Of a stretch of 64,000 nucleotides of DNA, positions 268 through 51,436 are shown piece by piece. Under the pieces are notes generated by a model. The model was not told the origin of the DNA. It was given only the letters and a program-made list of their open reading frames with translations, and ran no database searches. Source of the DNA: a virus (lineage: Duplodnaviria > Caudoviricetes); IMG/VR virus record IMGVR_UViG_3300033074_000806, positions 1 to 64,000 of that record, one strand, 5' to 3'. The position numbers were made by a program, and so were the translations under genes. The first letter of the stretch is position 1; each line of letters starts with the position of its first letter.

Positions 268-323
268 TGGTGGACCGTCTAGGATAGTGAACCCCAGTCT
301 GCCACACAAGGTGGTCACGGCCC
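268..323 (-). ncRNA. 56-nt tRNA-like mini RNA with G3-U70 acceptor stem and encoded ACCA end
   Basis: Minus strand GGGCCGT-GA-CCAC(CTTGT)GTGG-CAGA-CTGGG(GTTCACTAT)CCTAG-ACGGTCC-ACCA: 7-bp acceptor stem, T-arm-like hairpin, only one internal hairpin. Confidence 0.65.
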
Positions 324-338
324 GAATTCGTCGAAGGG

Positions 339-560
339 CTAGGTCTTAAATAACCTAGCAATTGAAATACAAAATAGCACGGGTAGTATTAAATACCATC
401 CTAGAAAGCTTATGATTAGTGCTGCCATTGTTTCTGAAACTACTTCATCTGAATTAAAGTCTTTTATACTCCATTCGTATTTAACAGCACTAATTACTAA
501 GAGTATTAAAAAACAGACAGCAGCGCCGATTAGATAGAACATAGTTAAAAATGAGACCAA
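339..560 (-). CDS. Small two-TM membrane protein
   Basis: 73 aa with two hydrophobic stretches; start uncertain (ATG at 542 possible). Confidence 0.6.
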   Translation of the reverse strand: MVSFLTMFYLIGAAVCFLILLVISAVKYEWSIKDFNSDEVVSETMAALIISFLGWYLILPVLFCISIARLFKT

Positions 561-1088: not shown

Positions 1089-1166
1089 TGGTGTAGCGTG
1101 ACGGATTTTCACCGTGCTTAGTGGTTGCTGCTTTTACGCAGACCACAGTAATATACCAGACGCCAC
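1089..1166 (-). ncRNA. 78-nt tRNA-like RNA (resembles a tmRNA tRNA-like domain) with G3-U70 and ACCA
   Basis: GTGGCGT/ACGCTAC acceptor + ACCA; T-arm ACGG(TGAAAAT)CCGT; extended central stem GTGGT-CTGC(GTAAAA)GCAG-CA-ACCAC without a canonical anticodon loop. Confidence 0.65.
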
Positions 1167-1372: not shown

Positions 1373-2057
1373 TTATGCTATGGGAACGTCTAGCTCGACC
1401 CATAGTTTTCGCTCACACGTGTCATTTTATTGACACAACGCGCTAGCACTTAAGAGCTGTTTAAACTCAGCTAGCAGGAGTAAATACGGGTTGTCTCAGC
1501 AGGTAATCTATACAACGCAGCCCGTAAGCGTTGTTCCATAGCTGTGTTTTAATTTTAACTAGAGTGTTGAGCACAGAACATACTCTAGCGTGGTAGATTT
1601 AATTTGACCATGAACCATCTACCAGAGAGTCATGGATACTAGCTCCAGTATGTTTCTATACACTAACGCTGAAACACCATTAGTGTTACGGACAACTAGC
1701 AGAGTGCCCGGCATCTAGCTACTAGACTAGTGCTTTTTGATAGCAGGTATGTAGATATATCTAATACCATGAGGTAAGCTTTTCCCTCACTTGCTATCTA
1801 TGAGGAGTTCAAGGCCGCGTTGCCGACCCTGCTCTCCACAAATTCCTGTAACTGTCAAATTAATGACAGCGTCGCATGTGTTATTTTTAATAAAAACTTG
1901 AAACAATCGTTAATTATTTAATAGTATTATGAGTATTAATTAATTATCAATGTAAGTAGTATTATATATAACTAGTTATGTCGCTTCTTGTAGGTTAGTG
2001 CTAACCAAGCCTACCCAGCCTATTACGCACATAAGCCATGAAGGCTAGTAGGTAGTG

Positions 2058-2725: not shown

Positions 2726-2950
2726 TTAATCAACTACAACAGTAGCTTCAAGAGGAATAACTAATGATGTGTCATCAATAGGAGTTAAAGTTCCATCAGT
2801 AAGGCTTACTGCAGTGAACCATATATCGCAGAATATTGATTCAATCTTCATCAATATTTCAGCATTAGTCACAGCTTTAAAGACCTGGCCACGTGGTAGT
2901 TCTTTAAATGTGACTACTACTTGTTTCGGACTCTTCTGGATGATCTTCAT
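2726..2950 (-). CDS. MKI-family small protein (paralogue)
   Basis: FKELPRGQVF...LMKI...AVSLTDG. Confidence 0.8.
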   Translation of the reverse strand: MKIIQKSPKQVVVTFKELPRGQVFKAVTNAEILMKIESIFCDIWFTAVSLTDGTLTPIDDTSLVIPLEATVVVD

Positions 2951-3135
2951 ATCTGGTTACTGTCAATTAAATGATAGCGCGGCCCTCCATCGTCTAGACT
3001 AATAGCATTAACTTTACTATTAGAGATAGATGTGATTTTGATAAAGATTCTAATTCCACTGAGAAGCGTGAATGTTTCTCCAGGAAGGATCTCTATTAGC
3101 TTTACTGGATTGGGTTGTTTGCGTGCGATCTTCAT
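2947..3135 (-). CDS. MKI-family small protein (paralogue, shortened C-terminus)
   Basis: ILPGETF...FIKI...NAISLDDG; palindrome 2960-2977 lies in its 3' end. Confidence 0.75.
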   Translation of the reverse strand: MKIARKQPNPVKLIEILPGETFTLLSGIRIFIKITSISNSKVNAISLDDGGPRYHLIDSNQI

Positions 3136-3175: not shown

Positions 3176-3391
3176 CTATTTCTCAGTAAATTCCCCTTCT
3201 ACAAGTATTACTTTAGTAGTTTCTCGTTCACAATCAGGATAGCCATTAAGTATGTTTACTATGTTGAATGGATAATCAGATCGTTTATCTAATTTCATAT
3301 AGATAGTTTCAAAATCTGGTCGTCTGAATAGATCACCAGGCATTAGGTCACGTAGCTGCTTATAGAGTCTTGGTTTTGGATTTATCTTCAT
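3176..3391 (-). CDS. MKI-family small protein (paralogue)
   Basis: LMPGDLF...YMKL...NIVNILNG. Confidence 0.8.
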   Translation of the reverse strand: MKINPKPRLYKQLRDLMPGDLFRRPDFETIYMKLDKRSDYPFNIVNILNGYPDCERETTKVILVEGEFTEK

Positions 3392-3811: not shown

Positions 3812-3852
3812 CCTAACACCTAGCCTCGTTGTCACACTAACGGCGGTCTTGG

Positions 3853-4254
3853 TTAGGCGGGTGCAGGAGTCAGCTGCACTTCGCCCAGGATTTCCTTGCG
3901 GATGTGCTCGGGGAGATCCTTGAGCTTGGCCACAATGTTGCGGCGCTTGCTATCCATCTCCACGAGGTTGTTGAGGATCTTGGTCTCCTCCTGGTCCAAC
4001 TTCTGGCCCTGCTGTGTCAATTTACTGACACTGCCACGGATCTTGGCCTTTTCGAAGTTGGCGGCGGTCACTTCCAGTCCCAGCTTCAGTCCCTGGAAGA
4101 ATCCTTCTGCGGATCCTGCCAGTTGTGATGCACCAAGGATGGGGTGGCGGATGCCATAGGCGATGCCACCGACAGTCTTGCCGATGAGCACACCAGCAGT
4201 TTGGCCGAATGGGATGTCATTTTTCAGACACTCCCAGTTGATGTCCTTGTTCAT
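3853..4254 (-). CDS. Hypothetical protein (Gly-rich N-terminus, coiled-coil C-terminus)
   Basis: 133-aa ORF, GC-rich codon pattern in line with neighbours. Confidence 0.75.
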   Translation of the reverse strand: MNKDINWECLKNDIPFGQTAGVLIGKTVGGIAYGIRHPILGASQLAGSAEGFFQGLKLGLEVTAANFEKAKIRGSVSKLTQQGQKLDQEETKILNNLVEMDSKRRNIVAKLKDLPEHIRKEILGEVQLTPAPA

Positions 4255-4256
4255 GT

Positions 4257-4487
4257 TCAGATACCTGCCTGCTTGCAGTGGTAGTAGACTGCCACGGTCG
4301 ACACACCGTAACGTTGTGCTTCCAGCTTGACCACGGTTGCTCGTGCAGAGCTGTATCGTGGATAGCGCTGGATGACCTTGAGCATGTCGCGACGATCACG
4401 AACAGGAATCTTGGTGTTGCGTTGGATCTTCATCTGGACTGTCCTGATGGGATGTAGCATCAAAAAATACTCCCACGAGCTATTCAC
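4257..4487 (-). CDS. Small basic protein with HTH-like C-terminus
   Basis: AQRYGVSTVAVYYHCKQAGI resembles an HTH turn and recognition helix; true start may be 4460 or 4433. Confidence 0.55.
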   Translation of the reverse strand: MNSSWEYFLMLHPIRTVQMKIQRNTKIPVRDRRDMLKVIQRYPRYSSARATVVKLEAQRYGVSTVAVYYHCKQAGI

Positions 4488-4514
4488 TCATGAGAGTATT
4501 CTTTGACACCTGGA

Positions 4515-5186
4515 TCAGAACTTGACATCGTCGCCAGGGGCGAGCTCGGCTTCCTGCTCCACCTTGGTGTTGGGGCGCCTGACGTTGTCCTGGGCCTTGA
4601 CCCAGTAGAGGCCCTTGCCAGGCAGGCTGGGAGGTGCGTTGATGAACACCAGCTCCTCCAGGATCGGGATCACCCGGTGGCCCAGCTCGGTCGTGTTCCG
4701 CAGGTTCTCCATCTGCAGGAACTGGTCCAGGACATCGCCATCGATGAGCTTCTCCAGGTGCTCCCCAGACATGATCATCGGCTCGTCTCCGTTCAGCAGG
4801 CCCGGATAGGCCTCGATCAGACGCTGCTCGGCATCACGAGCGTCGTCACCGTTGGGGAACAGCAGGATGAGGCCCTGCTCCTCGTGGGCGTAGCCGATGT
4901 TGGCCGAGTTGGCACGCTTGATCTGCACCGGCTGTCCCTTGTCGTCCTCCGCGATTCGGGAGTAGGTGATGATCTCCGGTCGGTTCAGCTCGATGATGAG
5001 CTTCTCGAACTTGTCGGCGAGCTCGATCCCGAAGTAGGACTTGTCTCGTCGGCTGTAGGCCTGGCGGAACACGCTCATGCCCAGGGTGTTGTCACCCAGC
5101 TTGCGCTCCTTTCGGTTGTATTCGTTGACGCCGTGCTTGAACAGATTCTTGATGTGTGCTTCCATGTGTATCCTCGTTAGGATCAA
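4515..5186 (-). CDS. Hypothetical protein
   Basis: 223-aa ORF downstream of the RNAP gene; likely start ATG 5165 (GAGG upstream). Confidence 0.75.
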   Translation of the reverse strand: MILTRIHMEAHIKNLFKHGVNEYNRKERKLGDNTLGMSVFRQAYSRRDKSYFGIELADKFEKLIIELNRPEIITYSRIAEDDKGQPVQIKRANSANIGYAHEEQGLILLFPNGDDARDAEQRLIEAYPGLLNGDEPMIMSGEHLEKLIDGDVLDQFLQMENLRNTTELGHRVIPILEELVFINAPPSLPGKGLYWVKAQDNVRRPNTKVEQEAELAPGDDVKF

Positions 5187-5245
5187 AACGACTAAACAGA
5201 CATGGAGGATGTGAGCACAATGCCCACAATCCCTCCAAAGATTCC

Positions 5246-7594
5246 TTAGTTTGTCAGGCGAACCAAGGAACCGGAGTAAACAATCCTAGCCTCGTCCAAG
5301 GTCAGGACCTTGCAAACCAGGTTCGGACTGCTGTATTTGGCCAGTGTGCGAGCCAACACAGCCCATGCACCGACCTTCTTGGCTTTGTCCAGCCTGATCT
5401 TGATACGGAGTGCAAGCCGCTCCATCTCAGCCTGTGTCAAAGATTTGACATCTTGCTCAGATAGCGTCTTGTTCTCTTGGTTCTTTCGCAGGATTGTTTT
5501 GAAGCAGTCCTGATAGAACTCAGCCAACTGGCGTGATCTCAGAGACACTGCCATCTTGCAATCTGGGATCTTGATACGCTGTTGATCGATCCCATGCAGA
5601 GGCAGCCAGGTATCTGCTACCTCTTGGGCTACTAGGGCAATCCTTTCATAGATTGTCCCCTTGATGATGGGCGCTTCCCAATCATTTGCCCGGACGTGGT
5701 TGATGGCGAAGTCCATCTTCTCCAGGTTGTGGATTGCAGGCACGTTCACAATGGGCACCTCGTGCTTCTTGCGATCGACCTCAGCTTGCACAGCCCTGGA
5801 TAGCTGTAGCTTCATCTCATAGTCCAATCGGCCCATCTCATAGGCTCTGCGGGCCATGAGGTCCCACTTGCCAATGTTACCTTCAATGGTATACATGGCC
5901 TGCTTGATGCGCTCCTTCCAGCTAGTAGCACCAGTGCGCACCGACTTCTTCTTCTGTGTCAACAAACTGACAGGTGTCTTGTCATACACCTTACCTGGCA
6001 AAATATTGACAGTGTCGCTGGTAACACTGCAATCATCGCCATCGTAATCGCCGCCTTGAACTGTCATCCACGGCTCACTACTGATCTCGCAGTAGTTACC
6101 ATTGGTGTATCCCACGACAGTGTAACGCTGCGTGGAGTTGCCCACAGGCAAGCTGGGATCTCTGGTCACATCCACGAGGTCACCAACCACCCACTCGCAG
6201 AACTTGGGCACCTTGATCTCGAATGGCTCCAGGTCTGGATTGGGTGCAGCCTTGACTCGGATACCATTCATTGCGGCCTTGGTAGCAGCCTCGAATACGA
6301 ACTTCTTGTGGAAGTAGCGCGCCCTATCCAGGTCGATACCATAGCCGAGTGCCATCAGCTTCTCCACACCATGGGCCAGCCCAAAGTGTTTGAAGTCTGT
6401 CATTTTTCTGATCGATGGCACGAACAGCTCTTCGATCAGTTTTTTGATCTCGTCGGTGTTGTAGTTATAGACGAGTGCTTGGATGTTCAGGCATGGAGTC
6501 GGCCTGTAGAGGCTATCCGTGTTGTGGACCAGCATCGTGCTGGGGTTGAGGGTGCCGGTAAGGCAGCCGAATTTCCAGGACTCGGAGTAAACCTCAGGTT
6601 CTTGACCAGGATCGCACTCCATGATCGCGCCCTTGGTTGCGTGACCATTCTCCCTGTCAATGATGGTGATCTGCACCCATTTGGTGCTTTGAGGCATCCC
6701 ATACCAGCAGCGCTTGATCTGGTCCATGGTTTCCCTGGACACTCTGGCCACTAGCCCATCATACTTGGGATTGTCATTGACCTTGGTAGGCCAAGTGATC
6801 ATCTCATGGTGAACAGCCATGCTTCCAGACCGACAGAGCAGTTGCACTGCGTTCTGAAGGTCCTTGAGCCGGTTGTTTTTGATCAGTTGCATGCCGATGA
6901 TCCCACCCATGGCATGGATGATAGCGGGCCCGAATCCCTTGCCCTTGGCAAGCACAGCAGTGGTAGTGTGATCGCCAGCCTTGACTCCCAACAGATGGTA
7001 GTCGCGCCTTTCAGCTCTAATAGCCATCGTCTCCAGCTTCTCCTGGGAGATCTCCTTGGGGAGCTCCACATAGAACAGCCATTCATTGGACAGCCGTTCC
7101 TGATAGAGCTTGTAGTTGTATTTGACGAGTTCCCCAGCCTCCCACCGCCAGGTGGGTTCAGGACGAACTCGGTAGATCGCGCGCTTCACGGCTTGCTGAA
7201 GCTTCTTCACGAGCGCCTCGGAAGTCTCCAACTCCAGGTTGGGATCAACCGCAAGGATCTCGGCGATGTTGGCGATCAGCCCTTTGGCGCGCCTATTCGT
7301 GCCAGTAGCAAGTATCGCTTCTAGGCATTTGGTATTGAGACCTACAGAAGGAGGGAGGGAACGTGTGACGGTTTCCATGTGAACTAGGTGTGTGAACGTG
7401 ACTCGGCAGTTCCTGTAACTGGCTACAGGCCAGATACTTACCTCGGAGCCTGCATGACTGCCATCTGACAAGCTCAAAGAATGGTCGGAGTAGTCACGAT
7501 AGATTACTCCAACCTGGTTCTGATCAGTCAGCCCTCCTGCATACGTTGCAGACAGGCTGATAGCTACCTTCCGGCAGCTGAAAGATCTCACCAC
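5246..7594 (-). CDS. Single-chain double-psi-beta-barrel RNA polymerase, YonO / QDE-1 (cellular RdRP)-like
   Basis: Ordered motifs VQI...TKGAI, VTRDPSL, QGGDYDGDD (6035-6055), NIGKW, QAEVDRKKH; start codon uncertain. Confidence 0.8.
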   Translation of the reverse strand: MVRSFSCRKVAISLSATYAGGLTDQNQVGVIYRDYSDHSLSLSDGSHAGSEVSIWPVASYRNCRVTFTHLVHMETVTRSLPPSVGLNTKCLEAILATGTNRRAKGLIANIAEILAVDPNLELETSEALVKKLQQAVKRAIYRVRPEPTWRWEAGELVKYNYKLYQERLSNEWLFYVELPKEISQEKLETMAIRAERRDYHLLGVKAGDHTTTAVLAKGKGFGPAIIHAMGGIIGMQLIKNNRLKDLQNAVQLLCRSGSMAVHHEMITWPTKVNDNPKYDGLVARVSRETMDQIKRCWYGMPQSTKWVQITIIDRENGHATKGAIMECDPGQEPEVYSESWKFGCLTGTLNPSTMLVHNTDSLYRPTPCLNIQALVYNYNTDEIKKLIEELFVPSIRKMTDFKHFGLAHGVEKLMALGYGIDLDRARYFHKKFVFEAATKAAMNGIRVKAAPNPDLEPFEIKVPKFCEWVVGDLVDVTRDPSLPVGNSTQRYTVVGYTNGNYCEISSEPWMTVQGGDYDGDDCSVTSDTVNILPGKVYDKTPVSLLTQKKKSVRTGATSWKERIKQAMYTIEGNIGKWDLMARRAYEMGRLDYEMKLQLSRAVQAEVDRKKHEVPIVNVPAIHNLEKMDFAINHVRANDWEAPIIKGTIYERIALVAQEVADTWLPLHGIDQQRIKIPDCKMAVSLRSRQLAEFYQDCFKTILRKNQENKTLSEQDVKSLTQAEMERLALRIKIRLDKAKKVGAWAVLARTLAKYSSPNLVCKVLTLDEARIVYSGSLVRLTN

Positions 7595-7616
7595 AGCAAA
7601 CGCAAGCTACGAACAT
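7524..7616 (-). CDS. 30-aa zinc-ribbon micropeptide
   Basis: MFVACVCCGEIFQLPEGSYQPVCNVCRRAD, GGAG 8 nt upstream, just downstream of palindrome 7638. Confidence 0.5.
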   Translation of the reverse strand: MFVACVCCGEIFQLPEGSYQPVCNVCRRAD

Positions 7617-7678
7617 GTGCATGACTCCAACAGAACGCTGTCATTTAATTGATAGGTAGACAGCATCACCTATTTGAC

Positions 7679-8176
7679 TCAGAACTCGGCACTGGCCGTG
7701 TGAGAGTCAGTATCTTGGAAGCTGCCATCCGGGTTGAGAATCCAAGACCCACGAGTCTTCCCAGGGTTGGCAGCACTGATCTTCTGCATGAATCGAGCCA
7801 GCCCACGTTCCAGGGACCTGATGAACAGGCTTGTTTCGTGGTCCATGTTGGTGGCGTTGGGGTTCTTCCTATTGGACAGGAAGAACTTGTAGGACTTGAA
7901 CAGCAGCTTGGCCTTCTCGAACGACGGGTTCCAGACAAACAGGCCGAACTTGCCAGTGATCTTGCCCTTGCTAGCCTCGACCGTCCTGCTGCTGGGCACG
8001 AACTTGAAGACGAACGTGCCGTCGTTGATGGTGAGAAGGGTAAGGGAAGAGGGGTTGCTGGTAGCGGGCGTCTTGAGGCATGCATCACAGACAGCATCCT
8101 CAGGATTGAGCAGCATGAAGTGGGGAAGGTTGGACTTGTAGTCCACACCACAGACGTCACAGCGAACGAGTGTCAT
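7679..8176 (-). CDS. Hypothetical protein with N-terminal CxxC...CxxC zinc finger
   Basis: CDVC...CDAC; AAGGAG RBS. Confidence 0.75.
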   Translation of the reverse strand: MTLVRCDVCGVDYKSNLPHFMLLNPEDAVCDACLKTPATSNPSSLTLLTINDGTFVFKFVPSSRTVEASKGKITGKFGLFVWNPSFEKAKLLFKSYKFFLSNRKNPNATNMDHETSLFIRSLERGLARFMQKISAANPGKTRGSWILNPDGSFQDTDSHTASAEF

Positions 8177-8283
8177 TGCAGATCTCCTTGGTCACAGACC
8201 AATAAGGACACGGAACAGAACGACGATGATCAAAATAATGATCATCCTGGTGCCAGTGGTATTCTGGCAGTGACGGTAGGGTC

Positions 8284-8727
8284 TCACTTGTTGATCTCCT
8301 GGTTGTAGAACTTGGTGACGTTCTTGACCCAGTGCCTGTTGAGGCCTGTTGGATCATTGTCTGCACCCACTGGGCAGTAGCGATTGCCAAGCAGTGGTAT
8401 GAATGTGCCCATGTTACTGGGCCTACCTTGCCGCACCCACTCCTTGTAGACGGTAGCAGCACACCATCCAGCCTGGGTATCCAGGTTGGTATCTATGGCC
8501 CTAGGGTGTAGAACACCGAACTCCCTGCCTGCCCTACCATTCTCAGCCCTCCTAATGGCATACACCACAGGGGACAACAGGGCAATGTGCTCACTAGGTA
8601 TGTTCCTAGTGATAGCAGCATCGATGACAGCACGCTCAGGGTTGTTGCTGTGCTTGAGCTGCTTGACCTTAGTGGTGAGCAGACCAACACACACCACACA
8701 GAGGAAGAAGATGATGAATGCTCTCAT
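8284..8727 (-). CDS. Membrane-anchored lysozyme-fold / glucosaminidase-like murein hydrolase
   Basis: N-terminal hydrophobic helix; AIRRAENG catalytic-Glu-like motif; C-terminal RYCPVGADNDPTGLNRHWVKNV typical of phage glucosaminidase-like domains. Confidence 0.6.
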   Translation of the reverse strand: MRAFIIFFLCVVCVGLLTTKVKQLKHSNNPERAVIDAAITRNIPSEHIALLSPVVYAIRRAENGRAGREFGVLHPRAIDTNLDTQAGWCAATVYKEWVRQGRPSNMGTFIPLLGNRYCPVGADNDPTGLNRHWVKNVTKFYNQEINK

Positions 8728-8876
8728 TGGGCTTGCTCCTTGAGCATGAGCTGCTTGGTGAGCTCATACATGAACTTGAACCACAACAACGTGTTGTAGT
8801 CCATCTTGTTGTTCTTGAACAAGATCTCAGCTTGTCCAAGCTTGATCGCGTAATCAGTGAAGAGGCGAGTAGCCAT
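8724..8876 (-). CDS. 50-aa hypothetical protein, first gene of the leftward arm
   Basis: Hand translation MATRLFTDYAIKLGQAEILFKNNKMDYNTLLWFKFMYELTKQLMLKEQAQ; GGAG RBS; ATGA overlap with next gene. Confidence 0.6.
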   Translation of the reverse strand: MATRLFTDYAIKLGQAEILFKNNKMDYNTLLWFKFMYELTKQLMLKEQAQ

Positions 8877-9474: not shown

Positions 9475-9486
9475 ATTTTTTATTAA

Positions 9487-44700: not shown

Positions 44701-46031
44701 TTGCCCCATATAGCACTGCTTATCAAAAATATCTAGCTAAAATTGGGAATCCTGAGAGATATGCTCCGTATTGGCGCGATAAATTAAAAGCAGCAATAAC
44801 TCAAAAGGATACTATTGTTAATCAGTTGTATCAGTATGAAAGAATAAAGCCAGGTATAAATGATTTAAATAGTAAGACTAAAGCTGGCGGATTCTATCAA
44901 ATGCTGCAGAAGGGATGGGATTCGTTAACACACGATGTCTTAGCAGAAATTCCATATTTTGGTAGTAAGTTCGCTCCATTTAGAGATGCTTTAGAAAGAT
45001 ATGAAAAAGAACAGATATATGGAGATAGCTTTGCTGATTGGAATAGACCCTGGGAAACTATAGTTCGGCCAGCTATTTATGATACTGCAAGATCAAATCC
45101 AGTATATGGGGCTGCTAAGGGTGCTATAATCGGCGCCCTAATGAGCAATGCTATTCCAGGAGTAGGCGGTTCATTGTTTAACCCTGTTGTAGGTCTTAGA
45201 AATTCAGCAACTGCTATACCATTCTTTGGAGCTGTTGGCGCAGCTTTAAGCTTAGGTAGATCAGCTATTACCGATCAGCATTTCGTTCCGCCACATAAAC
45301 AAAGCGAAATTGAAGCTCAAGACTATATGGATAGAGTTGTTTACGCAAAGGCTAGATCTTTTGAAATAGCGGCAACAGAGATGGGCGATAAAGAGCTTGC
45401 CAGCGGCTATGCCCGTCTAGCTGGAAAAACACTAGTTGGAGCAACTAGCCAACGTGGAACAAAATCAGCTTTAAACTCCTTTGATAGAAAGTATTTTGAT
45501 ACTTTTGTAAATAGTGAAGAAAGCGGAAGATCGGAATTACTAGCAAGATTGCCACAATATTATGGGCACGCGCTCAATAAAGTCTGGTCTAATGACTATG
45601 GCACAGAGCGTCAGCACGATTTAGAGACATTAGAATACTTTAGCAATAACGCACCACCGTCTACAGATTCATTAATATGGCACCCATCTGTTCCAACTTC
45701 TGCTTTGAAGATTAAAATGATTCAGGGCGGAATTAATGGCGTTAGTGATAACCTACATCGATTTGGATTTTACGAAAGTCAGGGCCTAGAGGCGGCTGAT
45801 AGATTCCCAAATGTCAATTTTATGACTACTAGTAAAATTAGCTCGCCCAATTTTAACTCGCTAAAAAACGATATACAGATTAATTTAAGACGACTAAATC
45901 CATTTGCTAATCCTGAGAATGTAAAGATCAAACAAATACACAATAGCCAATATAATCAAGCTTACGAGATAAGTCAAAAAATTGATAGAAAGCAAGAAAC
46001 CTATAGATACATGAGCGATATAATGAGATGA
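41754..46031 (+). CDS. Large tape-measure / ejection-type virion protein
   Basis: 1425 aa, Gly/Ala-rich hydrophobic patches, position after chaperones. Confidence 0.55.
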   Translation: MADSFNQEANNQKAENSGILTSILAGLGVIGLGQIIYGRAGKGNLIADLLHFTGNTLRGKGIDLKYAANAGKSRPTSGASAGARTVLDTSIDVRTGALRLDDLSIVKDLVYQARVIGASSASDQRSALTELTKNAIAARYKQSNVVSFFGQKLERLTVGEVLADQKRFQQSIGKNSWEVIRSAEERGIIKKDYILDTRIFATSKGIRDTRLKPLGKSILKNVDFLGLSSVVKAVTIGADQRFGILPGSAGGPLKFFIDGDIYSFSRSKEGVLKTNKVPGKFILRDANDPLHVATRLRSGEAYVEDPKPTNLYNKLQSALGIGTAYRNRDSLFTSIFINPIKRLRALETGEGILYRKPYKKTTSAAAEAAFGDIAPEAFGADNYVKTAGQQTPKLSELKFLDRLKVTFGVHDELAIIKARSYREKLRFNKVLTNTDLVVPRPTGRVKNVDTFFASKLSGQVIDAANSYTGAGEVTNRLKSKFYTARAGLGNKVLDFTNYAITRLNSLASGSLAGIGFKVSGSIKTNLFRLAGIPLAYEGIKETAGYLDYLSESTIGVSPLKLLGDAYATARVAQQKFREITGIQQLMKTAEEDFPGAVNSELGFFGRTAAAPFLTFMKGVKSGLGVKKSGILAGVMEFLFGGSSPEQTSEELSKEYSGITKVPVRRGALWGMGYQPFFGGDIQYYDYSWYYKMQSDYKTKSLYGSREEYYTKHANVLGIPLPTPSNLFGIRNLFNNYALEEANYYRRPYQETAGMFDEFPIFGPMLSATVGQLIKPTKKMHVSELYGLPAQTASLVDRTLPLNSAKRLGITDIPVTEMMLQDSSDPLVRLQQQAAIATEPLGIYQFILTYLGVNLKYNQANDPASASIMGSAGRELYDSNLGGFFGQTEFIRRFFPSEKYLASKQRQLYNPLRNLMPTWLPGIGSEEKSDQDYFMDFLHGDPYAKLESGDSRLPGVGYEALNPLYSNMPGVYSDVDRFLILSDVAPYSTAYQKYLAKIGNPERYAPYWRDKLKAAITQKDTIVNQLYQYERIKPGINDLNSKTKAGGFYQMLQKGWDSLTHDVLAEIPYFGSKFAPFRDALERYEKEQIYGDSFADWNRPWETIVRPAIYDTARSNPVYGAAKGAIIGALMSNAIPGVGGSLFNPVVGLRNSATAIPFFGAVGAALSLGRSAITDQHFVPPHKQSEIEAQDYMDRVVYAKARSFEIAATEMGDKELASGYARLAGKTLVGATSQRGTKSALNSFDRKYFDTFVNSEESGRSELLARLPQYYGHALNKVWSNDYGTERQHDLETLEYFSNNAPPSTDSLIWHPSVPTSALKIKMIQGGINGVSDNLHRFGFYESQGLEAADRFPNVNFMTTSKISSPNFNSLKNDIQINLRRLNPFANPENVKIKQIHNSQYNQAYEISQKIDRKQETYRYMSDIMR

Positions 46032-49000
46032 AAGAAATAATTGATAGGTCTCGTCAAACGTTTAATAAACTGTTCGATACTATAGGTAAATTCGGCAGTA
46101 AGTATGATGTTTATAACTTTACTGCATTCGATACTGAAACAAACGCGCTATTAAAGGGCGATGCTAAACTAGGTGCCCAAACAGATATCTTTAAGCAGGG
46201 CGCATCTGGCATAAGAACTATATTTGCTAGAAAGGCAGTTTTTGATAGATTTGGTAATGTAAAGGATGAATCAGCAGTCCATTTATTGATGGGTGGTGGT
46301 AAGATATCTACCCAAGGTGAAAAGTTCTTCAAAGATGTTGGGCTAACAATAGATAGGATTCTTCCTAACTTTGAAACCATCCCCAGTGAATATAGAGAAA
46401 GATTAAGAGGTAAGGCCTTAACTAATAGATCTCTTAACTATTTAGAGGCTGTTCAAAAGAAAACAGGTAAGAAATTATTGACAACTGAGGGCGAGCTAGC
46501 AGATGTTCTAAATAATATGCTAGGACATTCAACTAATACTATGAATGTCGCTATTGGACATAACGCTAGTAGATTCGATTTGATGATGGCCAGAGGTGTT
46601 AAAGGATTTAAGGGTGTAGGCAGCTCTACACATATCCTAGATACTTATGAGCTAACCACTAGAATGTTCCCTGAGCTAGCAGTAGAAAAGACTGGCGCCC
46701 TAGAACTAGATAATCTTATATCTTTAATGATGTATGAGTCTGGTAATAAGACTAAAGCTAAAATAAAAGATCCACTAAGACAGGCGACAGCCACTGAAGT
46801 TGATGCTCTAAAATTCTATGGAATTGATAATGTTCCACAAGAATTTAAAGCAGTATCAAAAATGTTTGGCGGTTCAACTGGAGTTCTTGCTGCCGGCGCA
46901 CATAGTGCCGATGTTGACTCGTTACGGTCTATGGCGATACTACATGCTGCTATGCTAAGAGCAGAAACATCTAAATCAGCATCAGAAATCTTTCATGGTT
47001 ATCTAACTGAGATCGGTGTCAAAGAACATCTATCTGCTATAGATATAATGAGTCGTATTAAGAAATTTGATCCTCAGCAAGTTTCTAGATACATGAATGT
47101 TGGAGGATATAAAGGTAAGATAAAAGACCTATTTGATATACTACAATCAGGACAAACTAGTATAGATGATTTAACTATTTATTCCAGATCTGGAATGAAT
47201 GAGTTATTTTCTGAATTAGGTAATCGATTTGGAAAAGGATTTGTATCCTCGTTTGCCCCAACAGCTAGAGCACTAGCAGAAGGGATGGACGCTGGAGTTT
47301 TCATGCTACGTGGAAACTCTCTTAAGTTTGGTAGGTTGGGAGACGCAGCATCTTTTATTTCCCTACCAACGCAGAACTTTAATAAGTTAGGCAATGGATT
47401 AATAAATATGGGCGATAAGCTTCGCTCAGTGACTAATCTATTAAGCCTAGGAAACAATAAAACAACAGTAGTCCCTTTTAGCCGATTCTTCTATTCTAAT
47501 ATGAATAGAATAATTGGAAGTGGTTTAAATCCTACTGATAGCAATGCTGCATATGCACTGCCAAATATAGTTAGACAAACGCTAGGAACTAAAGTATTTG
47601 GAACTAAATCACTGGGCTCCTTATTAGGATCTCATCCAACAGAGATGGGATTACCGAACTTCTCTGCTATTACAGCAAAAGCTGGAGTCTTACAGGTTAT
47701 AGAAAGTAATGCGCCCATTGTCCAGCATTATAAAAACCTCCAACAAGGAATACAATTAAGAAACCTAAGCATTGGGAATAGCCTTTCTAACTTTAAGAAA
47801 GCTAGAAAAATAATCGAAAGCAGCATCTCTGGTATCAGTTCTGAGCTTAATAGGCTAGGCATCGGCGCACAAGCAGCTTTTTCCAAAGCTGAGTCCCTAT
47901 TAGATGATGGATTAAAGTTAACTGTCGGCAGCTTATTAAGTGATATGACTATTCCAGAGGTCAGAGGCTTTGAAAAAGGTCGGCTAAGAAGACTTGGAAC
48001 AATATCCAATAGCCATACTGCGCGGTTAAGAAAACTTGGCAGACCTGTAGGTCCGTCTGTAATTTCTGAAAAGTGGGAATCAGCTGGCATAAGAAGCTCA
48101 TTCCAAGGCGGCGTATTTGTTGCTGAGTTTGATACGATGTCAAATTTAAGATCTTCATTTGAAGATTCAGCTGTATATGCTAGCAGAACTGGTTTGAATC
48201 TATTAAAGCAAAAAAGATATGCAGGTAGCGTAACTTTAAGAGACTGGTCAGCTAGAGACGTAAGTTTATTAAATCAATATTTAGATCCAACAGGAGCATT
48301 TAATTTAGAGCCTGGTATCGATTTTAGACCAACAGATGAGTCTGGTTATTTTAAAGTTCGTAATAGAAGAATGTTCTCTGATAAACGCAGAGAAATCGCT
48401 GCTGAATTATTTAGTGGAAAATCTAAAATTCAAAGACGTGTATTAGAGCAAATTATACGAGGCAGAGCAGCTTTGTCCCAAGCTGTGTTCACAGAAGATG
48501 CAATACAACTAAAATTTGCCACTAGAGCGTTTACAGGCAGTAGATCAGATAGCATCTTACTGGGCCCGTTGGGATCTCTTAGAGCCACAGTAAATGGATT
48601 TGTTGGCGGACGCATTTCTAAACTGATGCGCTCAATTGGAGCTGACTTCATCATGTCAGCAGAAAACTTAAAAGGTGCAGCCCCAGCTGATTTAATTACA
48701 CAGCATAGAATTTCATTGGTTCAGAGAGAAGGTGCCTTAGATGAGCTAGTTGGTTTCTTTAATTCTCAACGAGATGGATTTAGACTCGCACCGTCTAGTG
48801 TTCCTGGTGTTCGCACTCTAGTAATGCCATCTGGCGTAACAAAAGATGAGGTTCTAAAGTTTACTGAGCTATTCAAAACTCATTTAGTTAAAACTGCCGC
48901 TGAGCATTTGGATAAAGATAGAACACGTAGAACCTTAAAAATAATACGTGGGTATGATGGTATAAGAGCATCAGGCAATGTCATAAGAAAGATAGCTAGC

Positions 49001-51436
49001 ATAGGCATGAAGGGCATAACTTCTGCTTCTAGACTATTCTTGACAGATATACATCTTAGATCCGATGCATCTGATGTTAACAGATTAAATAACGTTAGAT
49101 GGAATGCCAGCCATATAAATCAGTATAAGCAATCCTTAGCAGCTACAGGAATCTCTGGTAACTCTGTATCTAGATTCTTAGAACAAGCTATGGCTAGAGC
49201 GACTGGATTTAGCTTATCAAAGGGCGTATTAAATCCTGGCCGACTAGGCTTTATTGGTCAAGCAATGACTGGCCAATTACCTTCTGATGCCTATATCCTA
49301 CGATTAGGAGCCAATAAGCAATTCTTTGATCAGCATGGAACCGCATATTCATTCCTGCCCAAGGTTGGTTCTGGACACGTATTAACTCCAGAAAGCTTAA
49401 AAGGAACAATCTACGATACTAACTATTCAGATCGTCAATTTTTTATCGATTTTGGACAAGCTGAACGATTCTCAGTTAGAGGAAGAAAAGAAACACAGGT
49501 ATCTACTAGATACTTACCAGTCCCAAATTTAAGAAAAATACTAGGGGTTAAGGTCGGACCAGGAGGTGCTCATGTATCTTCTTCGTCACTGGCTGGTAAA
49601 GTTTTTAGAGCTATAAGAGCTTATTCTAGTGAAGGTAATTTAGATGTAGTTCACACTCTTAAAACTGGTGGCAGATATTCTGTTAGAGACACTATATCGG
49701 CTGCTATGGATAAACTTATATCCAGCATACCAGGTAAGAAAGGACTAGCAAAGTCACTTACAACGTTCTCCATAAAAGAATCTGTAAACGCTAGATTGCT
49801 AGGTAAAGCACCCACTGGAAATTTAACCGACGCGTTTATTGCTGAACTAGATTCGCGGCAATTTGCTGAATGGGCTCATGTAAAATTTGGTAAGGAGAAA
49901 GCTCAGAAGTTTTTAGCAATGGCGGAAAATGATGCCCTTTATGGATTCGTAAGGGCAGATCCTATGCAAAAAGGTGGCCATGCAGCTATCATAAAATATA
50001 AGCTGATAAATCGTGGCAGGAATCCTAATGCAAAAATGGATGTGGCATTAGATCCTTATCTAGTTTCTAGACTAAATAGAGACGTTGATAAGGATGCTGT
50101 CAGATTATTGCTATTCGATCAAATAAGTGCCAAGGATTTGGAGCTTGATTTTAATCAACAAGTTGCTGCCCATGCTGTAGACTTTAATACCTATCTAAAG
50201 AATCTATCTAATACAAAAGCACCATCCATTAATGGCATACTAACCAACTTTATAGAGTCGGCAACTAAGGGTTTTCAACAAAGCTCAGACACACTAACAG
50301 CCCACCTCGGCATGAAGATGAATGCCAGCCTTGGATATACTCTATCTAAGGCTCCAGAAAGTATACTGAATAGGGCTTTAGAAGCTAAGTCTCCTGAAGA
50401 CTTAATTAATATACTAACTAGTAGAGGCGTAGATAGAAATTCAATTAATGATGAGATCATTAAAGCACTTACTGAACAAAGCAAAGATAAGACCGCAGCT
50501 GCTATAGAACTATTCCAGTCCTTTAAGCAGGCTGGAGTTAAGAAGGGTGCAGTTAAGACTGCAATGTATGATTTAATTGAAGAGGTTACTGGACTAATGG
50601 AACGAATTCGTTCTGGTAGCAGTAACTTAAGTGAAGCTATTGATGTTAGCTCTAAGGTATTTACTAACTTTTTTCAGCAGATAGCTGGCGAAGATTTAAT
50701 AAGACCTAGCTCCGCTGCGAAATTTTTGACTGATAATATTCCTGAAAGTGCCGGTAAGCTAGTTGGAGAAACTTATGGTAGAGCTTTTTTTGCTGTCTCC
50801 TCCTTAAGAGGAAAGGTATCTGATGCTTTATCTATGACTAGGGCAAATGCGCCAGATACTAAAGAAATTTTAGGAGCAACATTAGAAGCAGATCAGACTT
50901 CTCTATTAGATGATGTAATGGGTGAGTCAACAGTTGGAGATGAAGTTCTAGAATCATCTACGCAAAAGCTGAGAGCAAGTTTATCATCTAGAGCCGGTGA
51001 GTTTATTGGAACACAACTTGGTAATGCCAGAAACTTCTTGCGTTCTGATGGTGGCAGGTTAGCTCTTTGGGGCGCTGGATTATTAGGAGCGTATAGCTTA
51101 TTCTCTGCTATGACTTCTAATCCTGACGAACTTGCGCCACCTCCGTTACAGCTAAATCAGACTTCTGCGCCATTGCCTCCACCTCCAATGTTGCAGCAAC
51201 CGATGGACTATGGAATACAAAATGTTCCCCAGCTTGATCAAAAAATTGCTAGGATAAGTCCAACACATCCTGCACATATGCCGAGACAATCAAAAATTAG
51301 ACACTATACGCGCCACAGCCCTGGATACCCTTCCGCAAATATCAATGGCCGTATAGAAGATGATACTAGTAGTATGAATAGTGCTATTATCTCTCAGAGG
51401 ATGAAGCACATTGCAAATAGCGATTTCGTGTATTAA
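46028..51436 (+). CDS. Large virion-region protein: N-terminal DEDDh 3'-5' exonuclease + RNA polymerase beta-prime-like catalytic barrel
   Basis: AFDTET, GHNASRFD, ILDT, AHSADVD; FVRADP...ALDPYLVSRLNRDVDKD (50075-50095); C-terminal hydrophobic helix and Pro-rich tail. Confidence 0.65.
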   Translation: MKEIIDRSRQTFNKLFDTIGKFGSKYDVYNFTAFDTETNALLKGDAKLGAQTDIFKQGASGIRTIFARKAVFDRFGNVKDESAVHLLMGGGKISTQGEKFFKDVGLTIDRILPNFETIPSEYRERLRGKALTNRSLNYLEAVQKKTGKKLLTTEGELADVLNNMLGHSTNTMNVAIGHNASRFDLMMARGVKGFKGVGSSTHILDTYELTTRMFPELAVEKTGALELDNLISLMMYESGNKTKAKIKDPLRQATATEVDALKFYGIDNVPQEFKAVSKMFGGSTGVLAAGAHSADVDSLRSMAILHAAMLRAETSKSASEIFHGYLTEIGVKEHLSAIDIMSRIKKFDPQQVSRYMNVGGYKGKIKDLFDILQSGQTSIDDLTIYSRSGMNELFSELGNRFGKGFVSSFAPTARALAEGMDAGVFMLRGNSLKFGRLGDAASFISLPTQNFNKLGNGLINMGDKLRSVTNLLSLGNNKTTVVPFSRFFYSNMNRIIGSGLNPTDSNAAYALPNIVRQTLGTKVFGTKSLGSLLGSHPTEMGLPNFSAITAKAGVLQVIESNAPIVQHYKNLQQGIQLRNLSIGNSLSNFKKARKIIESSISGISSELNRLGIGAQAAFSKAESLLDDGLKLTVGSLLSDMTIPEVRGFEKGRLRRLGTISNSHTARLRKLGRPVGPSVISEKWESAGIRSSFQGGVFVAEFDTMSNLRSSFEDSAVYASRTGLNLLKQKRYAGSVTLRDWSARDVSLLNQYLDPTGAFNLEPGIDFRPTDESGYFKVRNRRMFSDKRREIAAELFSGKSKIQRRVLEQIIRGRAALSQAVFTEDAIQLKFATRAFTGSRSDSILLGPLGSLRATVNGFVGGRISKLMRSIGADFIMSAENLKGAAPADLITQHRISLVQREGALDELVGFFNSQRDGFRLAPSSVPGVRTLVMPSGVTKDEVLKFTELFKTHLVKTAAEHLDKDRTRRTLKIIRGYDGIRASGNVIRKIASIGMKGITSASRLFLTDIHLRSDASDVNRLNNVRWNASHINQYKQSLAATGISGNSVSRFLEQAMARATGFSLSKGVLNPGRLGFIGQAMTGQLPSDAYILRLGANKQFFDQHGTAYSFLPKVGSGHVLTPESLKGTIYDTNYSDRQFFIDFGQAERFSVRGRKETQVSTRYLPVPNLRKILGVKVGPGGAHVSSSSLAGKVFRAIRAYSSEGNLDVVHTLKTGGRYSVRDTISAAMDKLISSIPGKKGLAKSLTTFSIKESVNARLLGKAPTGNLTDAFIAELDSRQFAEWAHVKFGKEKAQKFLAMAENDALYGFVRADPMQKGGHAAIIKYKLINRGRNPNAKMDVALDPYLVSRLNRDVDKDAVRLLLFDQISAKDLELDFNQQVAAHAVDFNTYLKNLSNTKAPSINGILTNFIESATKGFQQSSDTLTAHLGMKMNASLGYTLSKAPESILNRALEAKSPEDLINILTSRGVDRNSINDEIIKALTEQSKDKTAAAIELFQSFKQAGVKKGAVKTAMYDLIEEVTGLMERIRSGSSNLSEAIDVSSKVFTNFFQQIAGEDLIRPSSAAKFLTDNIPESAGKLVGETYGRAFFAVSSLRGKVSDALSMTRANAPDTKEILGATLEADQTSLLDDVMGESTVGDEVLESSTQKLRASLSSRAGEFIGTQLGNARNFLRSDGGRLALWGAGLLGAYSLFSAMTSNPDELAPPPLQLNQTSAPLPPPPMLQQPMDYGIQNVPQLDQKIARISPTHPAHMPRQSKIRHYTRHSPGYPSANINGRIEDDTSSMNSAIISQRMKHIANSDFVY

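Follow-up and report, generated by a model that had tools for sequence, protein, structure and literature searches.

A candidate virion RNA polymerase with an exonuclease-like domain and a second, early-arm RNA polymerase in a large myovirus

How might a phage that encodes two very different polymerase-like proteins, one (P0001) in a leftward early arm and the other (P0002) in its tail module, organize its own transcription? In this study, we addressed this question with a 64-kb window, that is, the whole stretch of DNA analysed, which forms the left part of a roughly 190-kb genome of an uncultured myovirus represented by a contig of 130.6 kb (∼68% complete). The term left end refers to this ∼68%-complete contig and is not necessarily the true genome end or the end that enters the cell. 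The rightward structural block measures 97 kb.

The early-arm polymerase gene lies in a GC-rich island, which is kept in the relatives L001 and L004; the distant loci L010 and L011 are GC-rich too.

3850-8900, no strand: GC-rich island (50-57% GC vs. ∼38% elsewhere) with the RNA polymerase (RNAP) gene and 6-7 small leftward genes
5246-7594, minus strand: P0001 RNAP gene, longest ORF (782 aa); probable gene 5246-7378, starting at Met73 (7378)
6035-6049, minus strand: codons for residues 516-520 of the 782-aa P0001 ORF, the metal-binding DYDGD motif, invariant in the homolog alignment

Homologs of P0001 are 709-733 aa long and begin near Met73 according to their lengths and the alignment, so the true gene is probably 5246-7378. 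The protein carries TRDPSL...GGDYDGDD, with most of these positions invariant in nine homologs; most invariant alignment columns fall in the TRDPSLPVGNSTQR and GGDYDGDD stretches, and the R-x-P-S-L element of DPBB-A precedes the D-x-D-G-D loop, as the QDE-1/YonO/gp64-phiFa clade requires. Among deposited phages, the sole tblastn match was the RNAP of the Thermus phage phiFa, a relative of P23-45 (E 2e-21, 27% identity, 47% of the query), which Supplementary Data 4 of PMC10770324 lists among two-barrel RNAP families. The Pfam RdRP model PF05183 stayed below its cut-off in P0001 (E 3e-4, 20.1 bits vs. 23.8) and is on record for the homologs P0004 and P0011. The structural model was poor (pLDDT 58 overall, <50 across the catalytic barrel). 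With this low-pLDDT model, the significant Foldseek matches were all of the QDE-1/RDR type (QDE-1 at E 2e-6, RDR2 also among them), followed by gp62 and gp64, and the top three in VIA were gp66 of phi14:2 (a crAss-like phage) as the best structural match (Z 9.3, 267 aa), QDE-1 (Z 8.3) and RDR2 (Z 8.0). P0001 shares its fold class, the DYDGD motif and the weak PF05183 signal with SPbeta YonO and Neurospora QDE-1, and differs from them in being shorter (∼710 aa) and in belonging to a lytic-type early module. Motif, phiFa match and fold matches thus agree with the original prediction that this ORF is polymerase-like, and we firmly regard P0001 as a single-subunit RNAP of the QDE-1/crAss gp66/P23-45 gp64-phiFa clade, with a predicted two-barrel fold and predicted DNA-templated activity.

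The second protein belongs to a contractile-tail module, because sheath and tube-like genes lie upstream of it; its gene sits between tail tube/chaperone genes and Baseplate_J-like baseplate genes. The gene order runs from sheath and tube through three giants to the baseplate, and the synteny of the three giants is kept down to ∼25% identity.

36877-40040, plus strand: tail sheath (36877-38478) and two tube-like genes of the contractile-tail module
41754-46031, plus strand: giant upstream of P0002 (1425 aa) with a transmembrane-like helix at its N-terminus, invariably ahead of P0002-like genes
46028-51436, plus strand: P0002, exonuclease-polymerase fusion and candidate virion RNAP (1802 aa), a tail-module giant
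46028-47017, plus strand: DEDD(h) exonuclease-like N-terminal domain of P0002 (residues ∼1-330, from the alignment)
47945-48637, plus strand: candidate beta-like region of P0002 (residues ∼640-870, from motifs seen by eye)
49067-50224, plus strand: predicted beta-prime-like clamp core and catalytic double-psi beta-barrel of P0002 (residues ∼1014-1400, from the model)
50078-50095, plus strand: codons of the invariant R-D-V-D-K-D catalytic motif of P0002 (residues 1351-1356; DVDKD at 1352-1356)
51050-51436, plus strand: hydrophobic stretch and Pro-rich tail at the C-terminus of P0002; the last residues are the family-conserved NSDF-x-Y
51439-57804, plus strand: giant downstream of P0002 (2121 aa); its C-terminal region is lysin-like (PHROG 20474 'endolysin', E 5e-33)

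Across 15 P0002-family sequences (17-81% identity), R-D-x-D-x-D was invariant down to 17% identity, DPxQ and H were also invariant or nearly so, and Lys, Arg or Gln occupies the site where most RNAPs have Gly. The P0002 model reached pLDDT 71, with values mostly of 80-90 across residues ∼1014-1399, and placed the catalytic loop between helix 564-570 and strand 578-583 (pLDDT 80-90). Foldseek returned >100 matches at E<=1e-3, and the 50 listed were all largest-subunit (beta-prime-type) chains; VIA gave the AR9 beta-prime (Z 10.1 over 266 aa), QDE-1 (Z 10.0) and, at Z 8-9, the largest subunits of Pol I-IV, vaccinia, ASFV, archaea and bacteria. The top matches in both aligners were thus RNAP largest subunits together with QDE-1/RDR polymerases, and the structural matches, ∼230-275 residues long, fall in the N-terminal half of the RNAP largest subunits, with its clamp and barrel. 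On the strength of the model, we firmly predict that P0002 holds this beta-prime-like clamp and catalytic barrel half.

The N-terminus of P0002 contains, in order, the ExoI D-x-E, ExoII H-N-x-x-F-D and ExoIII (H)-x4-D motifs. Residues D35, E37, H178, N179, D184 and D297 were invariant in four sequences, down to 28% identity, and His292 is replaced by Arg in one of the four. PF00929 had no match in P0002 itself and a profile search against the PDB was also empty; the distant homolog P0022 contains RNase_T (PF00929) end to end at the same N-terminal position (residues 62-228, E 2.3e-15). With these invariant DEDD residues and the canonical domain of the homolog, the exonuclease fusion proposed earlier is borne out, and we firmly regard the N-terminus as a DEDD exonuclease fused to the polymerase module, its activity being predicted from sequence.

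P0002 had also been described as a two-barrel RNAP. The beta-prime-like catalytic barrel stands (RDxDxD; AR9, Z 10.1), whereas the second barrel was not demonstrated: none of a six-frame Pfam search, hhalign and a 12-mer test, which also miss the beta-prime similarity, revealed a beta-like barrel in P0002 or its neighbours. The Pfam beta and beta-prime models had no match in the genome in the six-frame search, and P0002 had no sequence-level match to any RNAP family. By eye, family-conserved motifs (KG, F-E/G-D/E-S/G and G-x-x-R-x-T) were seen in residues ∼640-870. These results bear on the possibility, which we judge unlikely, that only P0001 is a working phage RNAP, that host RNAP makes the first transcripts, and that P0002 is a tail or ejection protein of structural function, in which the beta-prime-like module survives as an exapted or inactive relic or has another nucleic-acid-handling role in DNA delivery. 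Such a reading would suit the second barrel missing from the above tests, the lack of a sequence-level RNAP match, the catalytic motif without the usual Gly and the BFVD search, in which the best matches of P0002 were uncharacterized or 'minor tail' giants. Besides, phages can live with an nvRNAP alone, since phiFa and G18 possess a gp64-like RNAP and lack a vRNAP (PMC10770324). However, even among members sharing only 17-25% identity, the Arg, the three Asp that follow it and DPxQ...H do not vary, which speaks for a conserved active site; the DEDD catalytic residues retained in P0002 point to nucleic-acid enzymology; and the early arm was not enriched in promoters resembling the sigma-70 consensus, which may not be that of the host.

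It is quite improbable that P0002 is instead a DNA-synthesising or repair enzyme, namely a DNA polymerase or primase of the PolD-like two-barrel type that proofreads with its exonuclease. An N-terminal DEDD exonuclease fusion is the hallmark of proofreading DNA polymerases, and PolD is also built from two-barrel folds (PMC7281927); nevertheless, the structural matches cover the RNAP largest-subunit half over the length given above, no PolD chain is among the matches listed, and the gene lies in the tail module rather than in a replication module.

The early arm is marked by a recurrent 18-bp inverted repeat.

1852-1869, minus strand: motif site heading the ORF-poor RNA region, not conserved in L001
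2211-3742, minus strand: cluster of motif sites at 2211, 2692, 2960, 3146, 3461, 3493 and 3725
2278-2448, 2445-2666, 2726-2950, 2947-3135 and 3176-3391, minus strand: family of five small early paralogs (56-74 aa), each with MKI at the start
4015-6414, minus strand: motif sites within GC-rich coding DNA (4015, 4215, 5435, 5956, 5995 and 6397)
7575-7685, minus strand: intergenic block upstream of the RNAP gene, holding site 7638-7655; 90% identical to a relative
7638-7655, minus strand: motif site upstream of the RNAP gene, reading C-TATCA-ATTAAA-TGACA-G; site and flanks identical in L001 and L004
8981-8998, minus strand: motif site from the motif scan, in the divergent region heading the leftward arm

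At <=1 mismatch, CTRTCA-N6-TGAYAG matched 18 places in the window (0.67 expected; 0 of 100 shuffles reached 18), 14 of them in the first 9 kb. The whole 130.6-kb contig has 27 sites, and its first 9 kb (7%) holds 14, so the motif is enriched in the early arm and not exclusive to it. The original prediction, which noted the palindrome in this arm only, was therefore right about its reality and concentration but not about its exclusiveness; the two sites it had placed upstream of genes are both present, 7638-7655 for the RNAP gene and 1852-1869 for the ORF-poor RNA region. The early arm of a relative showed 1.6 matches/kb against 0.2/kb in its late-arm part, and the block at 7575-7685, at 90% identity, is better conserved than coding DNA (70%). 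Intergenic sites are directional, with TATCA 5', TGACA 3' and a GC-rich 5' flank, and those at 2211, 2692, 2960 and 3146 end 1-26 nt ahead of the start codon of the next small gene; early mRNAs read from such sites would be leaderless or short-leadered. The six sites inside genes are more symmetric (TGTCA...TGACA), and four of them have counterparts in a relative.

Whether these sites are promoters is a separate matter. We consider it doubtful, though less so than a purely structural role of P0002, that they are operators of a dimeric phage or host regulator that shuts off or times the early arm. The 6-N6-6 inverted-repeat geometry is typical of dimeric-regulator operators, the symmetric versions lie in coding DNA, and some sites overlap start-codon regions, a typical place of repression. 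By contrast, the intergenic sites are directional, several small genes have one site each, as with individual promoters, and no HTH protein was identified in the early arm within a limited sampling; two of the five MKI paralogs were searched against Pfam and had no match. In a variant of the operator reading, the sites would act as RNA hairpins at ribosome-binding sites, against which it counts that AT-rich 6-bp stems are weak as RNA structures.

Taken together, the reading that we favour, at even odds, is that this phage hands transcription over from a virion to a non-virion RNAP in a relay like that of P23-45, built from different parts. In P23-45, the vRNAP reads the left-end pre-early genes, including the nvRNAP gene, the nvRNAP reads early and middle genes, and the host RNAP reads late genes (PMC10770324). 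In the present phage, P0002 would be a new kind of candidate virion enzyme, which we infer to be packaged, alone or with its two giant neighbours, and to be ejected along with the DNA. The ejected protein would start leftward transcription of the early arm at the directional GC-rich/C-TATCA-W6-TGACA-G sites, one of which lies upstream of the P0001 gene, and newly made P0001 may then take over early and middle transcription. The original prediction assigned the rightward late operon to the second RNAP, a role that host RNAP has in P23-45. In the present phage, the capsid gene is followed by an intrinsic-type terminator, which would be compatible with transcription of the rightward structural block by host RNAP. 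As had been expected for relatives, both polymerases co-occur on one 147-kb record (P0006 and P0013), and the motif enrichment and the GC-rich island recur; a single sample yielded the distant homologs P0011 and P0017.

Comparison with known systems shows which parts would be shared. First, in P23-45 (gp96 tape-measure-fused vRNAP, gp64 nvRNAP; Chaban et al., 2024, PMC10770324), too, a polymerase module is housed in a giant protein of the tail module, and a small RNAP of the QDE-1 clade is encoded in a terminal early arm that carries a recurrent AT-rich motif of its own. However, P0002 lacks sequence similarity to gp96, has a DEDD exonuclease and matches gp96 (Z 5.4) less closely in structure than it does the multisubunit beta-prime (Z 8-10), while the phage differs by its contractile tail, its ∼38% GC genome with a GC-rich island as early arm, and a motif that is a directional inverted repeat. 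Second, the virion RNAP gp66 of crAss-like phi14:2 (PDB 6VR4) is a two-barrel RNAP hidden in a virion-module giant, as P0002 may be, with a non-canonical DxDxD motif, and is undetectable by sequence; its match to P0002 is weak (Z 6.0), it has no exonuclease fusion, and a second, QDE-1-type non-virion RNAP in crAss-like phages was not recorded in this analysis. Third, the jumbo-phage multisubunit RNAPs (AR9 and phiKZ nvRNAP/vRNAP beta-prime pieces; PDB 7S00, 7OGP and 8QUE) match the catalytic half of P0002 best in structure and share the logic of a virion plus a non-virion polymerase, but they consist of several recognisable beta/beta-prime fragments without an exonuclease domain, whereas this genome has no Pfam beta/beta-prime matches. 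Coliphage N4 resembles the proposed relay in an injected enzyme, as presumed for P0002, and in early promoters on small inverted repeats near one genome end. Its vRNAP is T7-like, not two-barrel. The promoter hairpins of N4 have 5-7 bp stems and 3-nt loops, whereas the motif here has a 6-nt spacer, and hairpin extrusion is hypothetical.

A bolder idea, to which we give little credence, is that P0002 founds an unrecognised family of virion-delivered RNAPs, in which a single chain in large-myovirus tail giants combines beta-like and beta-prime-like halves with a DEDD 3'-5' exonuclease that resects the non-template strand or proofreads the transcript. Cultured phages, e.g., Acinetobacter phage ME3 and Microcystis phage MaMV-DC, contain structural look-alikes of P0002. 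If the bolder idea holds, resection of the non-template strand of the entering DNA would allow inverted-repeat promoters to fold on the single-stranded template, as in N4; alternatively, proofreading of the transcript would be the first for two-barrel RNAPs.

Beyond the early genes, the left end contains an ORF-poor region with several structured elements.

268-323, minus strand: CCA-ended tRNA-like minihelix (56 nt) with a 7-bp acceptor stem, a 4-bp hairpin, a T-arm-like hairpin and ACCA
1089-1166, minus strand: second CCA-ended stem-closed element, not conserved in L001
1325-1694, minus strand: conserved non-coding block, 78% identical to a relative, with several predicted hairpins
1411-1481, minus strand: Pistol-ribozyme-like element (Rfam RF02679, sub-threshold)

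The minihelix lies 15 nt past the stop codon of a small hydrophobic ORF and is the sole conserved CCA element (93% over 57 nt in a relative). In the 64-kb window, ARAGORN called 0 tRNA genes and Rfam gave 0 matches at the gathering score; the element at 1089-1166 was called by ARAGORN at a relaxed threshold only, with a 2-nt 'anticodon'. A cassette of CCA-ended tRNA-like RNAs, as proposed originally, is thus reduced to two stem-closed NCCA elements, one of them conserved, with no canonical tRNA, and the stem-closed, NCCA-ended criterion alone matches 101 places in the genome. The accompanying suggestion that the RdRP-like P0001 copies these RNAs from an RNA template, like plant-virus tRNA-like structures, found no support and is very improbable. 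QDE-1 relatives are able to use RNA templates (PMC9508822), and one conserved CCA-ended minihelix is present; on the other hand, gp64 and YonO, the closest phage relatives of P0001, are DNA-dependent transcriptases (PMC10770324; PMC5467207), only one CCA element is conserved and stem-plus-NCCA arrangements are common by chance, and the minihelix comes directly after an ORF, as would a structure that processes or stabilises a 3' end. In the proposed relay, the ORF-poor left end would be transcribed as structured RNA, which the Pistol-like element and the tRNA-like 3' structure may process. The RF02679 match at 1411-1481 covers the full model length and does not reach the threshold (27.7 bits vs. 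gathering 34.5, E 0.074). By eye, GCUAGC in its P1 loop can pair with an internal GCUAGC as a 6-bp pseudoknot, and P2 reads GCUC/GAGC here and GGUC/GACC in L001, a compensatory change between two distinct sequences.

The observation behind the original prediction, in which a virion RNA polymerase (RNAP) reads a palindrome-marked early arm that yields a second RNAP, proved largely real, and its interpretation is plausible and in part supported. The 64 kb examined are the left-most part of a 130,587-bp IMG/VR record classed as linear and ∼68% complete by CheckV estimate, and the assembly of a close relative reaches 181 kb. PHROG matches comprised a metallophosphoesterase, large terminase, portal, major head protein, J-like fibre, tail sheath and two tube-like proteins; three giant ORFs (1425, 1802, and 2121 aa) follow the tail genes and are succeeded by baseplate-type genes, where relatives carry Baseplate_J-like genes. 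Because of the sheath and tube matches, the giants and the baseplate-type genes, the phage is a large, contractile-tailed one. A crude gene map showed 58 tightly packed genes in a single rightward block (9.1-106.7 kb) with leftward blocks on both sides (1-8.9 kb and 106.9-130.4 kb). Since the early arm of the relative extends beyond the start of the contig, window position 1 is an assembly break and not a genome end.

P0001, the RNAP-like protein of the early arm, is encoded at 5246-7594 on the minus strand, in DNA that has 50-57% GC against ∼38% for the genome; the actual gene is probably 5246-7378, as homologs begin near Met73. The protein contains GGDYDGDD, with a Pfam RdRP match across the catalytic region below threshold (E 3e-4), and TRDPSLPVGNSTQR...GGDYDGDD is kept in nine metagenomic homologs (29-78% identity). 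No relatives were found in IMG/VR, and 50,697 deposited phage records gave a single match, to the protein annotated as RNA polymerase in Thermus phage phiFa (E 2e-21, 27% identity). The AlphaFold model was poor (pLDDT 58), and its significant Foldseek matches were all QDE-1/RDR-type polymerases, followed by P74-26 gp62 and P23-45 gp64; a second, independent aligner placed crAss gp66 (Z 9.3, 267 residues), QDE-1 (Z 8.3) and RDR2 (Z 8.0) above every unrelated chain. P0001 is thus very probably a single-subunit two-barrel RNAP of the QDE-1/gp66/gp64-phiFa clade. Within this clade, P23-45 has gp64 as its non-virion polymerase (Chaban et al., 2024, PMC10770324), and phiFa has a gp64-related enzyme that the survey in that paper gives as a separate family.

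The RNAP gene lies in a GC-rich island (50-59% GC in genomes of 33-40% GC) that is also present in relatives:
3850-8900 of the window, GC-rich island
9500-13500 of locus L001, GC-rich island
8500-13551 of locus L004, GC-rich island
Loci L010 and L011, GC-rich island
As it persists alongside RNAPs just 33-78% identical, the island has been maintained, not recently acquired. An rRNA or other known RNA gene, or a GC artefact, was rejected as an explanation of the 4-9 kb region, where Rfam gave no match.

P0002, the 1802-aa tail-module giant (46028-51436, plus strand), had no Pfam, PHROG, PDB-sequence or phage-tblastn match. An exhaustive HMMER search with residues 420-1600 returned 12 relatives, and a profile search one more. 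Across 15 family sequences (17-81% identity), G1239, P1312, Q1314 and R1351-D1352-x-D1354-x-D1356 were essentially invariant and H1318 nearly so; the resulting pattern, DPxQxxxH...(∼25 aa)...P......RDxDxD, parallels the R-x-P-x-L-H...NADFDGD element of beta-prime. Lysine at the DVDKD position is not disqualifying, since DVDKD was seen once in the survey of the P23-45 paper, in an uncultured, unrelated myovirus whose protein is of the phiKZ-vRNAP type (PMC10770324). A model of residues 780-1640 reached pLDDT 71 overall and 80-90 over the motif region. In a Foldseek search of the PDB, over 100 matches reached E<=1e-3, and all 50 of the listed ones were beta-prime-type largest-subunit chains, from plastid PEP, the non-virion RNAPs of AR9 and phiKZ, and enzymes of bacteria and archaea. 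A Foldseek-independent aligner gave the following scores.

Matches of the P0002 model in the Foldseek-independent aligner
AR9 beta-prime: Z 10.1, 266 residues
QDE-1: Z 10.0
Largest subunits of Pol I, II, III, IV, vaccinia, ASFV, archaeal and mycobacterial enzymes: Z 8.2-9.0
phiKZ and plastid PEP: Z ∼8
P74-26 gp62: Z 7.0; crAss gp66: Z 6.0; P23-45 gp96: Z 5.4

Because all these alignments cover the same part (model residues ∼235-620, P0002 ∼1014-1400), the catalytic half of P0002 is established as beta-prime-like at the level of predicted structure. Judged from the model, it looks closer to the N-terminal half of multisubunit-type beta-prime than to gp96 or gp66, and P0002 is a candidate new polymerase family.

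A complete two-barrel enzyme requires a beta-like barrel as well. N-terminal of the beta-prime-like part, the family conserves KG (∼652), F-(E/G)-(D/E)-(S/G) (∼706) and G-x-x-R-x-T (∼849-854). The phage genome searched in six frames with Pfam RNA_pol_Rpb2_6 and Rpb1_2 gave no match, hhalign found nothing when the P0002 family was compared with the P0001 family or with E. coli beta/beta-prime, and the best ungapped 12-mer BLOSUM windows between P0002 and E. coli beta/beta-prime fell below shuffled maxima; these negatives are uninformative, because all three approaches also miss the structurally visible beta-prime similarity. The 12-mer comparison offers no validation of by-eye matches such as FEDS. 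The ESM Atlas gave no usable match to residues 330-1070 and, for the 1425-aa neighbour upstream (41754-46031), only sub-0.9 matches in unnamed clusters. A beta-like barrel could lie in P0002 residues ∼400-1010 or in a neighbouring giant. Thus, of the two polymerases first proposed, P0001 stands as a very probable two-barrel RNAP and P0002 as a modelled beta-prime-like half, for which Pfam, hhalign and the 12-mer comparison gave no second barrel.

The exonuclease part of the prediction was borne out at the level of conserved residues. In an alignment of the P0002 N-terminus with three homologs (lowest identity 28%), D35, E37, H178-N179, D184 and D297 were invariant, the DEDD(h) pattern with long insertions that account for the missing Pfam match. 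In P0022, a distant member of the family, residues 62-228 form a complete RNase_T domain (PF00929, E 2.3e-15) similar to DnaQ/epsilon genes of Flavobacterium phages, and P0022 shares the C-terminal RDxDxD module with P0002; having both, it marks the predicted exonuclease-polymerase fusion as a recurrent feature of the family. Profile searches with both polymerase families and the exonuclease domain against PDB sequences gave nothing significant, and no paper found in the literature searches describes a two-barrel RNAP with a fused exonuclease.

Relatives at 77, 26, and ∼25% identity keep the order of sheath, tube, small genes, ∼1430-aa giant, P0002-like giant, ∼2100-2300-aa giant and baseplate. 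Tape-measure and ejection proteins are encoded at such a position in tail modules, and the virion RNAP of P23-45 is hidden at the same kind of position; from the conserved gene position we infer that P0002 is a candidate virion protein. The third giant (2121 aa, 51439-57804) has a lysin-like C-terminal region by PHROG, with no match of this part to PDB sequences. Among predicted viral structures (BFVD), the best matches of the P0002 core were long uncharacterized or 'minor tail' proteins, none annotated as RNAP, among them A0A172Q021 of Acinetobacter phage vB_AbaM_ME3, A0A075BUT7 of Microcystis phage MaMV-DC and A0A8S5SD80 ('minor tail protein'), at E 2.5e-7 to 2.4e-4 over 465-957 aligned columns. 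The next-ranked matches were jumbo-phage and giant-virus beta-prime subunits. These giants of cultured phages may be further hidden members of the P0002 family, a lead only, because their TM-scores are low (0.2-0.3).

The expected co-occurrence of both polymerases was confirmed in a relative, where P0006 and P0013 share a single 147-kb record, with identities of 69% to P0001 and 77% to P0002, respectively. In addition, distant homologs of P0001 (P0011) and P0002 (P0017) occur in one sample, on separate contigs.

The 18-bp motif CTRTCA-N6-TGAYAG has 18 sites in the window against 0.67 expected, 14 of them within the first 9 kb. This strong enrichment upholds the link of the palindrome to the early arm, but not its supposed restriction to it, as the same 9 kb (7% of the genome) hold 14 of 27 sites genome-wide. 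The relative has 1.6 sites per kb in the early arm versus 0.2 per kb in the late-arm part, and exact copies are also found at distant RNAP loci, which are likewise GC-rich. Intergenic copies are directional on the transcribed (minus) strand, with a GC-rich stretch followed by C-TATCA-(A/T)6-TGACA-G, and four of them end 1, 10, 11, and 26 nt 5' of the start codons of small paralogous MKI-starting genes. The copy upstream of the RNAP gene lies within a 111-nt block with 90% identity to the relative, versus 70% for coding DNA. Six more, more symmetric copies fall within GC-rich coding DNA, against about 0.4 expected by our estimate, and four have counterparts in the relative. The main rival reading, operators for a dimeric regulator, is possible though rather doubtful; we prefer promoters for a phage polymerase, which has about an even chance of being correct, because there is one directional site per small gene. 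P0002 is favoured as the polymerase that would use these promoters, since left-end AT-rich motifs serve the virion enzyme in P23-45 (PMC10770324). Sigma-70-like promoters were not enriched in the early arm, and the rightward block's few intergenic gaps had no motif in common.

N4, phiKZ/AR9 and P23-45 all hand transcription from a virion to a non-virion polymerase. Here, the polymerase module in P0002 would initiate transcription of the early arm, and the QDE-1-clade polymerase P0001 encoded there would next take over; such a relay of the P23-45 kind has the best support of the readings considered, and we give it in full an even chance. It would differ substantially from P23-45 in its candidate virion enzyme, which belongs to another, previously unannotated family, nearer multisubunit beta-prime in predicted structure, and carries a DEDD exonuclease, in the conserved GC-rich island that makes up its early arm, and in the directional inverted-repeat form of its recurrent motif. 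Transcription of the rightward late operon by the second RNAP, as first proposed, found no support: late genes of P23-45 are transcribed by host RNAP (PMC10770324), and here a GC-rich intergenic region 3' of the major head (capsid) gene (∼29662-29841) closes with a canonical stem-loop and T-tract terminator.

Each new relay solution has shown unexpected RNAP architecture. If true, the present one extends the gp64/phiFa-type enzyme far past Thermus phages, adds a candidate virion enzyme invisible to sequence methods, and joins a DEDD exonuclease with a two-barrel polymerase. Should the structural look-alikes of cultured phages turn out to be relatives, 'tail' giants may often conceal a polymerase, one open to laboratory tests. 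With its AT-spaced directional repeats, the conserved GC-rich island would also be a compact system for promoter recognition by such enzymes.

At the left end, 560-2050 is nearly devoid of ORFs, and 1325-1694 (78%) and 267-323 (93%) are conserved in the relative. The elements are:
1411-1481, minus strand, Pistol ribozyme-like, full-length match at relaxed threshold (27.7 bits vs gathering 34.5, E 0.074)
339-545, minus strand, small hydrophobic ORF of ∼68 aa, position conserved in the relative, directly upstream of the minihelix
268-323, minus strand, tRNA-like minihelix of 56 nt with 7-bp acceptor stem, 4-bp hairpin, T-arm-like hairpin and ACCA
The Pistol-like core is nearly invariant in both phages, its P1 loop GCUAGC can pair with an internal GCUAGC as in the family's 6-bp pseudoknot, which the covariance model does not score, and P2 shows a compensatory change (GCUC/GAGC here vs GGUC/GACC in the relative). 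The element is therefore rather likely a Pistol ribozyme; a pattern scan of metagenomes for the core found the already known relative and no other. The minihelix lies 15 nt 3' of the stop codon of the conserved hydrophobic ORF. Conservation lends no support to AlaRS charging of it, since the alanine identity pair G3:U70 here is G3:C70 in the relative. The predicted cassette of tRNA-like RNAs was overstated: the conserved 268-323 element holds, but a second CCA-ended element (1089-1166) is not conserved in the relative, and a generic stem plus NCCA, discarded as evidence for tRNA-like genes, matches 101 places genome-wide. The window has no canonical tRNA and no tRNA or Rfam family at threshold; a weak Rfam match to DUF3800-VI RNA at 1024-1081 on the minus strand (24.3 bits vs 35, E 0.22) is probably chance. 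The left-end RNA is fairly described as a structured non-coding transcript that is processed.

The genome's sole canonical tRNA lies 61.6 kb past the window (125607-125683 of the parent record, minus strand; ARAGORN 'SeC(tca)', CCA encoded). Its UCA-type anticodon would therefore read UGA; the window shows no sign of wholesale UGA recoding, because its long ORFs are intact under table 11. Also past the window, a 1.17-kb stretch within the rightward structural block (104893-106060) has no ORF of at least 60 aa in the crude gene map, yet is coding-like. Finally, 14757-16661, 16764-19664, and 22639-25725 of the window probably carry intein or homing-endonuclease insertions. The metallophosphoesterase measures 634 aa here, 633 aa in L004 (with a faint LAGLIDADG match) and 308 aa in L001; the terminase measures 966 aa versus 619 aa in L001, and the portal 1028 aa. 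Internal segments of the metallophosphoesterase and of the portal match the same part of PHROG 85.
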